The notes: a model not told the origin generated them from the letters alone. A DNA stretch of 64,000 nt from GCF_054482525.1 NZ_CM137006.1, one strand, 5' to 3'; counted from the first letter of the stretch, positions 18,477 through 20,161 are shown. Made by a program: numbers and translations.

Positions 18477-19847
18477 ATGGCTCGTTCTTTTAAAGTCTTA
18501 TCGCCAACGGCAATCCTCGGGTATGGATTCCCGGAGGAGAGCTTCCGCAAAGCGATGGCAGAATCGCCCGATCTGATCGCCGTTGATGCTGGCTCTTCCG
18601 ATCCGGGTCCCCACTACCTCGGGGCGGGCAAACCGTTTACCGATCGCGCAGGGGTCAAGCGCGATCTACGCTATATGATCACCGCAGGCGTGCAAAATAA
18701 TATACCGGTGGTGATCGGAACGGCCGGCGGTTCTGGTGCCGCTCCACACCTGGAGTGGTGCCGAGAAATAATTCATGAGATTGCCCGGGAAGAGCACCTC
18801 TCGTTCTCGATGGCGCTGATCCCGGCAGACGTTGACAAAGCCATCGTCCACCAGGCGCTGGATAACGGCAAAATCACGGCGCTGGATTTTGTCCCGCCGT
18901 TAACCCACGACGCGATTGACGAAAGTACGTATATCGTCGCGCAAATGGGCATCGAACCCTTCCAGCAGGCGCTGAAAGAAGGCGCGCAAGTGGTGCTGGG
19001 CGGGCGCGCTTACGACCCGGCCTGCTTTGCTGCGCTACCGATCATGCAAGGCTTTGATGAAGGTCTGGCGCTGCATTGTGGGAAAATCCTTGAATGCGCG
19101 GCAATCGCCGCAACGCCCGGCTCAGGCTCTGACTGTGCGATGGGCATCATTGATGACAACGGCTTTACGCTGAAGACATTTAATCCGAAGCGTAAATTTA
19201 CCGAAACGTCAGCGGCTGCACACACACTGTATGAGAAATCCGATCCCTACTTCCTGCCAGGACCTGGCGGCGTGTTGAACCTGAAAGGCTGCACATTTAA
19301 AGCGGTCAATGACGGCGAAGTGTACGTCAGCGGTTCTAAGCATGAAGAAACGCCGTATGCCCTGAAACTGGAAGGTGCGCGACGGGTGGGCTTCCGCTGT
19401 CTGACCATCGCAGGAACGCGCGACCCGATCATGATCGCCGGGATCGATAAAATCATCGATGAAGTCAAAACCAGCGTTTCGCGTAACCTGTCGCTCGACG
19501 ATGACAGCATACGCATCAATTTCCACCTGTACGGCAAAAACGGGGTGATGGGCGACCATGAACCGATGCAAACTGCCGGGCATGAGCTGGGGATTGTCCT
19601 TGATGTAGTTGCACCGACCCAGGAAATTGCCAACAGCGTTTGCTCGCTGGTGCGCTCTACTATGCTGCACTACGGCTATGAAAACCGCATCGCTACCGCA
19701 GGCAACCTGGCGTTCCCATTCTCCCCTTCAGATATCCAGGGCGGGCCGGTATACGAATTTTCCATATATCACCTGATTGAAGCCAACGACGCTCTGCGTT
19801 TTGATTTCCATATTGAACAGGTGACGCCAGAAGGAGTTCAGGCATGA
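18477..19847 (+). CDS. DUF1446-like (AtuA-like) protein of unknown function
   Basis: 456 aa MARSFKVLSPTAILGYGFPEESFRKAMAESPDLIAVDAGSSDPGPHYLGAGKPF...; family assignment from memory; starts 4 nt after mal. Confidence 0.6.
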   Translation: MARSFKVLSPTAILGYGFPEESFRKAMAESPDLIAVDAGSSDPGPHYLGAGKPFTDRAGVKRDLRYMITAGVQNNIPVVIGTAGGSGAAPHLEWCREIIHEIAREEHLSFSMALIPADVDKAIVHQALDNGKITALDFVPPLTHDAIDESTYIVAQMGIEPFQQALKEGAQVVLGGRAYDPACFAALPIMQGFDEGLALHCGKILECAAIAATPGSGSDCAMGIIDDNGFTLKTFNPKRKFTETSAAAHTLYEKSDPYFLPGPGGVLNLKGCTFKAVNDGEVYVSGSKHEETPYALKLEGARRVGFRCLTIAGTRDPIMIAGIDKIIDEVKTSVSRNLSLDDDSIRINFHLYGKNGVMGDHEPMQTAGHELGIVLDVVAPTQEIANSVCSLVRSTMLHYGYENRIATAGNLAFPFSPSDIQGGPVYEFSIYHLIEANDALRFDFHIEQVTPEGVQA

Positions 19848-20161
19848 AACAGTCAATTGTCTCACTGGCGCAAGTCATTCGTTCGAAAAATGCCGGACCT
19901 TACGAACTGGTTTTAGATATTTTATTTAAAACCAAAGAAAACTATGAGCGAGTTAAATCATCAGGGCAATTAACCCCAGAACTGATCGCGCGCTTATATC
20001 ATGTTGAACCTGACTTTATTCATCGTATTGTCTGGTTTGATCCTTCTAACGCAGTAAAAATCGTCATGCCACGAGATATTATCTCCGGGAATGTAGGTGA
20101 CAATGATGTCTATGGTGCACAGCAACATGCACCTTTATTAAATATGAGTTTCGATTTGTAA
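19844..20161 (+). CDS. DUF4387-like small protein, partner of the DUF1446-like protein
   Basis: 105 aa ORF with 4-bp ATGA overlap onto the preceding gene, suggesting translational coupling. Confidence 0.55.
   Translation: MKQSIVSLAQVIRSKNAGPYELVLDILFKTKENYERVKSSGQLTPELIARLYHVEPDFIHRIVWFDPSNAVKIVMPRDIISGNVGDNDVYGAQQHAPLLNMSFDL

Follow-up and report, generated by a model that had tools for sequence, protein, structure and literature searches.

The genes of the classical citramalate lyase of clostridia adjoin those of glutamate mutase (glm), methylaspartase (mal) and mesaconase (PMC4682846). For the enterobacterial cluster, Kronen and Berg (2015; PMC4682846) showed that FumD of Escherichia coli O157:H7 is a mesaconase/fumarase yielding (S)-citramalate, found by testing that neither citrate lyase, isocitrate lyase nor methylisocitrate lyase accounts for citramalate cleavage in E. 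coli O157:H7, and left the citramalate-cleaving step open. Two crystal structures have since been released, 9ERQ ("Citramalate lyase - AMPPNP - citramalate complex"; October 2025) and 9EVF ("Citramalate lyase - ADP - pyruvate complex"; 2025-10-08), whose chains the depositors named 'Citramalate lyase, subunit A (cmlA)', of 456 amino acids (aa), and 'subunit B (cmlB)', of 105 aa. Moreover, a preprint (bioRxiv 10.64898/2026.01.16.699985) reports that Raoultella cmlAB, a gift of I. Berg, splits citramalate into pyruvate and acetate in vivo: an E. coli acetyl-coenzyme A (CoA) auxotroph stops growing on mesaconate once the cmlAB plasmid is cured, and labeled mesaconate carbon reaches acetyl-CoA. 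Here, we analyzed a 64,000-nucleotide segment of an E. coli chromosome (GCF_054482525.1, NZ_CM137006.1; hereafter the window), in which two overlapping open reading frames (ORFs) of 456 and 105 codons follow mal within a glutamate-fermentation island. By sequence comparison, these genes are the species orthologues of cmlA and cmlB, and they very probably encode the subunits of a citramalate lyase independent of CoA and acyl carrier protein (ACP) that completes the enterobacterial methylaspartate pathway.

The first-pass annotation of this DNA had described a DUF1446-like/DUF4387-like pair of these lengths right after mal, coupled by a 4-bp overlap, and both the raw sequence and Pfam agree. The mal stop codon is followed by a 3-nucleotide spacer (CAA) and by the ATG at 18477 that opens the large ORF; its stop (TGA, 19845-19847) overlaps the ATG of the small ORF at 19844 in a 4-bp ATGA, and a Shine-Dalgarno sequence lies 7 nucleotides before each start (AAGGA at 18465-18469 and GAAGGAG at 19830-19836, respectively). 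Pfam places AtuA/DUF1446 (PF07287, E = 5e-19) on residues 63-394 of the large product and DUF4387 (PF14330, E = 2.9e-39) on the small one, while no NCBIfam model matches either ORF of the pair and the neighboring genes do receive names. Against four other enterobacterial genera, the ratio of nonsynonymous to synonymous substitution rates (dN/dS) is 0.036-0.045 for cmlA and 0.05-0.11 for cmlB, and the ATGA overlap is kept in other enterobacterial genera; both ORFs are thus real genes, on which purifying selection is strong. Clustering at 90% identity puts 5597 sequences into the group of the large protein alone.

Searching the PDB by sequence gave indel-free, full-length matches of the two ORFs to the two chains of 9ERQ and 9EVF, with E-values of 4.6e-292 for chain A (420/456 residues identical, 92.1%) and 5.2e-57 for chain B (88/104, 84.6%). 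The AlphaFold2 model of the window CmlA (predicted local distance difference test score, 86) superposes on both entries, with a template modeling (TM) score of 0.94 for 9evf_A. The structure comparison of CmlA returned no other close fold relative in the PDB, the remaining matches of the whole model being partial and ferredoxin-like (M20 peptidase dimerization domains, Wzz). Chain A is 100% identical to a gene of Klebsiella michiganensis DSM 25444, whose cluster has the gene order of the window, glmS-glmL-glmE-mal-cmlA-cmlB-gltP-fumD-cobO, including the convergent LysR gene (locus L013 of our sample). Compared with the Klebsiella/Raoultella enzyme, the E. coli pair is thus alike in subunit lengths, identity (92% and 85%), fold, operon order and ATGA overlap, and unlike it in 36 substitutions in CmlA and 16 in CmlB, its function being assigned by orthology. 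In sum, two-subunit coupled architecture, full-length identity, fold and methylaspartate-cluster context all agree with CmlAB. The window CmlA also carries all of the ~150 alignment columns that are invariant across 34 homologues (60-100% identity), including two glycine-rich loops, D37-x-G-S-x-D-P-G-P-x-Y-L-G-x-G-K52 and P214-G-S-G-x-D-C220; loops 37-52 and 214-220 are the least confidently modeled parts of the AlphaFold2 model.

The function of CmlAB was already assigned by others in 2025-2026, and the window contributes an orthologue only. This knowledge has not yet reached annotation (NCBIfam, RefSeq): RefSeq gives the pair the family-level names "AtuA family" and "DUF4387". Several NCBI records (P0002, P0060, P0072) label CmlA homologues '3-methylaspartate ammonia-lyase', a name that had been flagged as unexplained (PMC4682846). 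This label is a propagated misannotation, the true Mal being the product of the upstream gene. A methylaspartase identity of the 456-aa ORF itself was rejected, since TIGR01502 (543 bits) matches the upstream gene only.

The pair belongs to an operon on the + strand that is flanked, together with the rest of the island, by cydAB and sucABCD in the RefSeq annotation. A mechanical ORF list, NCBIfam and RefSeq annotation agree on the genes, and the features are as follows.

13931..14380, + strand: glmS, glutamate (methylaspartate) mutase B12-binding subunit S (NCBIfam NF002612, E = 1.3e-75, full length; RefSeq annotation of the identical strain)
14380..15768, + strand: glmL, glutamate mutase accessory/reactivating protein (TIGR01319, 893 bits; NF040745, 511 bits)
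15787..17232, + strand: glmE, glutamate mutase catalytic subunit E (TIGR01503, 865 bits)
17232..18473, + strand: mal, 3-methylaspartate ammonia-lyase (TIGR01502, 543 bits; stop TAA at 18471-18473)
18477..19847, + strand: cmlA, predicted citramalate lyase large subunit, AtuA/DUF1446, 456 aa
19844..20161, + strand: cmlB, predicted citramalate lyase small subunit, DUF4387, 105 aa (88/104 identical to chain B of 9ERQ/9EVF; PF14330, E = 2.9e-39)
20322..21602, + strand: gltP/dctA-like dicarboxylate/amino acid:cation symporter (NF002461 and NF008440, E ~1e-90, below equivalog cutoffs)
21710..23362, + strand: fumD, class I fumarate hydratase in the role of mesaconase, converting mesaconate to (S)-citramalate (NF011921, PRK15392, 1282 bits)
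23372..23974, + strand: cobO, cob(I)alamin adenosyltransferase supplying adenosylcobalamin for glutamate mutase (NF004637, 294 bits; NCBIfam name, cob(I)yrinic acid a,c-diamide adenosyltransferase)
23982..24000, + strand: terminator-like GC hairpin and T-run at the operon end, a match to the consensus only (8-bp stem with 7 GC pairs, then TTTTT)
24719..25624, - strand: LysR/GcvA-type transcriptional regulator, convergent with the operon (NF008352, E = 2e-65)

All nine operon genes are intact in the window. For two genes, the start of the longest ORF is not the probable true start: the mechanical ORF of glmS opens at 13868, and the annotated start at 13931 gives a 149-aa form whose first residue is where the alignment to the NCBIfam GlmS profile begins; for the gltP-like gene, the mechanical ORF opens at GTG 20301 and the RefSeq gene at 20322. 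The symporter is presumed to import glutamate or a C4/C5-dicarboxylate. A promoter scan of the operon region gave fewer sigma-70-like sites than shuffled controls, and no promoter is claimed. A LysR homologue (64-88% identity) on the opposite strand is present in 19 of 24 enterobacterial loci, with one further partial match. The 10.2-kb stretch around the gene pair is 100% identical to strain SCU-102 and occurs at ≥95% identity in 1135 of 5426 complete E. coli genomes (about one fifth).

NCBIfam agrees with the first-pass annotation that this operon encodes glutamate mutase, methylaspartase and a mesaconase-like hydratase. The proposed route would run from glutamate to (2S,3S)-3-methylaspartate by GlmSE, whose B12 cofactor GlmL and CobO support, then to mesaconate and NH3 by Mal, to (S)-citramalate by FumD and finally, by CmlAB, to pyruvate and a C2 unit (acetate). 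The same annotation had noted no citramalate lyase in the cluster, which holds for classical citramalate/citrate lyases in the retrieved annotation (window ~5800-64000), and had proposed that the pair may take over the processing of citramalate, the step then missing, or an auxiliary function. The first of these proposals is now backed by the full-length orthology to the CmlAB of 9ERQ/9EVF and by the in vivo use of the enzyme in the preprint. Two points lie beyond it: the binding of an adenine nucleotide by the enzyme and the prior existence of the assignment.

The classical CitDEF-type lyase (EC 4.1.3.22 / 4.1.3.6; Clostridium tetanomorphum) shares with CmlAB its net reaction and its place in the methylaspartate pathway; in contrast, CmlAB is unrelated to it in sequence and fold and binds an adenine nucleotide. 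The classical enzyme depends on a gamma subunit that serves as acyl carrier and bears phosphoribosyl-dephospho-CoA, and on CitC/CitX/CitG for its activation, none of which is encoded in the window cluster: no NCBIfam model of the Cit families matches any of ten cluster proteins, and no cit genes occur in the retrieved annotation between ~5800 and 64000. A classical CitDEF-type identity was thus rejected for want of ACP, transferase or prosthetic-group genes in that annotation and because the fold is unrelated. Pseudomonas AtuA, the founder of PF07287, has the AtuA/DUF1446 domain in common with CmlA, and the long forms of its family share a C-terminal DUF4387; unlike in that system, the window locus holds no atu genes and the polypeptide is split, not fused. 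To our knowledge, AtuA itself has no assigned reaction, and the family name is thus functionally uninformative. The pair was not retained as a functional AtuA orthologue, given its neighbors (glm, mal, gltP, fumD and cobO) and the partial Pfam domain that alone is shared. The (S)-citramalyl-CoA lyase/HpcH-type and isocitrate lyase-type enzymes cut the same or an analogous C2-C3 bond to release pyruvate or glyoxylate, but they need CoA activation by a transferase or are TIM barrels, and no structural similarity to them was found. With amino-acid kinases (N-acetylglutamate kinase, carbamate kinase, aspartokinase, glutamate 5-kinase), CmlA has a generic alpha/beta sandwich in common and no sequence match, GTPases and metallophosphoesterases scoring equally; membership in the amino-acid kinase family was rejected on noise-level Z scores among which GTPases and phosphoesterases were mixed.

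The distribution of the pair was assessed on the 80 best loci of a scan of one genome per species, the cluster genes being located by tblastn. Of the loci that could be tested, all 77 have cmlB right behind cmlA, 66 of 72 have mal directly upstream (24/24 enterobacterial and 42/48 other), and 61 of 68 contain glmE. The linkage of cmlAB to mal is near-obligate among close relatives, which are unusually well conserved, with 60-70% identity across Proteobacteria, Riflebacteria, Aminicenantes, Spirochaetes and Firmicutes. Outside Enterobacterales, the order glmS-glmL-glmE-mal-cmlA-cmlB was found in three independent metagenomic or metagenome-assembled genome contexts, one of them Candidatus Rifleibacterium. 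The family as a whole counts 2390 clusters at 50% identity (E ≤1e-3), and at ≤55% identity the link to mal is lost, while the DUF4387 partner is always retained. The first-pass annotation had taken a wide occurrence of the pair away from glutamate mutase and methylaspartase genes, combined with a demonstrated unrelated function, as a sign against its proposal; this does not apply to the close orthologues, for which mal is upstream in the loci counted above, and some relatives at ≤55% identity do exist without glm or mal. Relatives of 608-619 aa carry DUF4387 fused at their C terminus (34-41% identity to CmlB), which gives Rosetta-stone support for an obligate CmlA-CmlB complex.

Among the distant relatives, two loci, L008 (9520-17115; GCA_012837285.1) and L009, lack glm and mal genes; there, a 55%-identical AtuA/DUF4387 pair shares an apparent operon with genes for an M20 peptidase, an Amidohydro_3 enzyme, a DcuC transporter and a two-subunit class I fumarase. 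This setup suggests a different upstream route into the same hydratase-plus-lyase module. Others at ≤55% identity have unrelated neighbors. Outside Enterobacterales, 36 of 46 testable loci have a conserved gene of ~315 codons immediately after cmlB (e.g., L005:11677-12618, L007:11712-12665 and L002:11698-12654), and in none of the 24 enterobacterial ones. Its product is ~60% identical across phyla and has a Walker A motif, GAEGSGKSTLI; it matches no Pfam or NCBIfam family, and its solved relatives are matches to the P-loop only. This P-loop protein may serve the lyase or the mutase as a third component or activator. A tblastn search of the window found no homologue of it anywhere, and the 314-aa ORF upstream of glmS (11936-12880) was rejected as its counterpart (BLASTP, E = 4.9).

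The cleavage of the C2-C3 bond of citramalate needs a carbanion alpha to a carboxylate, which classical citrate and citramalate lyases provide for by an ACP thioester. From the entry titles, the crystallized CmlAB binds citramalate together with AMPPNP and pyruvate together with ADP, and our own proposal is that ATP may act as a catalytic participant and not as a bystander. The C4 carboxylate of citramalate would be phosphorylated by ATP to an acyl phosphate, which would take the role of the thioester and make a retro-aldol/Claisen-type cleavage of C2-C3 feasible, with pyruvate and acetyl phosphate as products. ADP would next regain the phosphoryl group, on the enzyme itself or by way of acetate kinase, so that the net reaction would be citramalate to pyruvate and acetate at zero net ATP cost; loops 37-52 and 214-220 would be candidate nucleotide or substrate lids. 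That the substrate complex was obtained with a non-hydrolyzable ATP analogue and that the product complex holds ADP points weakly in this direction. The fermentation is estimated to yield roughly one ATP per glutamate, which such a mechanism fits. With it, a need for nucleotide would also be consistent with the preprint's net reaction. We tentatively extend this model, with low confidence, to the whole, otherwise unassigned AtuA plus DUF4387 superfamily, always paired or fused, whose members might be ATP-dependent C-C lyases that turn a free carboxylate into an acyl phosphate in place of a thioester; CmlAB would be the first characterized of them, releasing acetyl phosphate and thereby conserving energy directly, with the P-loop protein as a third component outside Enterobacterales.

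Several observations weigh against the assignment or against a role for ATP. In the searchable literature, no primary paper on CmlAB was found, only the 2015 paper that raised the question and the 2026 preprint that uses the enzyme, and PMC12290011 and bioRxiv 2025.11.21.689712 do not mention it; the basis of the assignment is thus the names given by the depositors, the titles of the entries and one preprint by a user. In six of the 72 testable loci, mal is not directly upstream; in five of these, from Accumulibacter, three Shewanella and Desulfospira, the 6.5-10 kb upstream contain no mal at all. The neighbors annotated for Accumulibacter, one Shewanella and Desulfospira (L040, L071 and L074) are housekeeping or efflux genes of unrelated function, with no hint of an alternative pathway. 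The recurrent weak structure matches to carboxylate-phosphorylating amino-acid kinases are compatible with the mechanism and far too weak to indicate a relationship. Moreover, the preprint (10.64898/2026.01.16.699985) gives the reaction as a direct cleavage of citramalate to pyruvate and acetate, and the word "ATP" is absent from its text. The main alternative builds on this last point: CmlAB would be a citramalate lyase in which the nucleotide has an allosteric or structural part only, cleavage proceeding without phosphoryl transfer by direct retro-aldol reaction via the aci-carboxylate of acetate, as in isocitrate lyase with succinate. The inhibition by high acetate discussed in the preprint is in line with it, the upregulation of Acs in the evolved strains suggests free acetate as the released product, and CmlA shows no recognizable kinase motif or Pfam kinase domain. 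We regard this alternative as possible but doubtful; it concerns the mechanism and would leave the citramalate lyase assignment in place.

A different view is that the operon is cryptic in this E. coli lineage, the intact CmlAB being a lyase by descent that makes no physiological contribution under natural conditions. Also on the negative side stands the finding that, in E. coli ATCC 700728, the cluster was not inducible: under all conditions tried, glutamate neither supported nor stimulated growth and methylaspartase activity went undetected (PMC4682846). The accessory status of the cluster among complete E. coli genomes (1135/5426) would fit as well. Nevertheless, strong purifying selection acts on both genes across genera (dN/dS 0.04-0.11), the nine genes are intact and the 10.2-kb block is kept at ≥95% identity in 1117 genomes, which makes a cryptic operon unlikely in our opinion. 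As for the idea that the pair performs an auxiliary task, such as processing of methylaspartate or mesaconate isomers or repair of a side product, 'citramalate lyase' being a working name, it could appeal to the older database name '3-methylaspartate ammonia-lyase' of the homologues and to the origin of the AtuA family name in an unrelated terpene pathway. However, the ligands bound in 9ERQ and 9EVF are citramalate and pyruvate, cmlAB is required in vivo for the conversion of mesaconate to acetyl-CoA (10.64898/2026.01.16.699985), and the ammonia-lyase name was itself questioned in 2015 (PMC4682846), the true Mal being encoded next door. An auxiliary task is thus largely refuted and highly improbable, and a citramalate lyase formed by CmlA and CmlB is the favored reading of the pair.

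Around the operon, the island interval from cydA to sucD spans window 9562-27159. In the K-12 map, this interval is presumably filled by mngR-mngA-mngB; the retrieved annotation (window ~5800-64000) holds no mng genes. Between cydA and glmS, a low-GC stretch (window 11000-13900; 35-38% compared to ~52% in the operon) carries hypothetical + strand ORFs at 11936-12880 (314 aa) and 12961-13383 (140 aa) without NCBIfam match; 550 bp of AT-rich sequence then lead up to glmS. The stretch resembles DNA of separate acquisition at the island's edge. At the other end, an IS200C-type tnpA (24082-24591, - strand), with a flanking hairpin at 24689-24715, separates the cobO terminator from the 3' end of the LysR gene. 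Its junction is spanned by 3 of the 15 best-matching E. coli genomes, the alignments of the other twelve ending at query position 10178 (window ~23977), and the insertion thus looks strain specific. Further away, a gene for an RHS element core protein, annotated as a pseudogene on account of its internal stop (window ~52600-56775, - strand; NZ_CP051753.1 1388792-1392967), is followed by a small hypothetical ORF, near ybfA and the kdp operon.

The credit for the discovery of CmlAB belongs to the depositors of 9ERQ and 9EVF, and what remains new here is the ATP/acyl-phosphate proposal, the breadth of the superfamily and the P-loop neighbor found outside Enterobacterales. A nucleotide-binding lyase whose fold has no other solved relative is of interest to enzymology in its own right. 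For annotation, thousands of genes labeled AtuA family, DUF4387 or 3-methylaspartate ammonia-lyase could be renamed when they adjoin mal. The cluster is carried by about one fifth of complete E. coli genomes and by many opportunistic pathogens, and the very probable assignment of CmlAB would close the enterobacterial methylaspartate pathway to pyruvate and acetate without CoA or ACP machinery.

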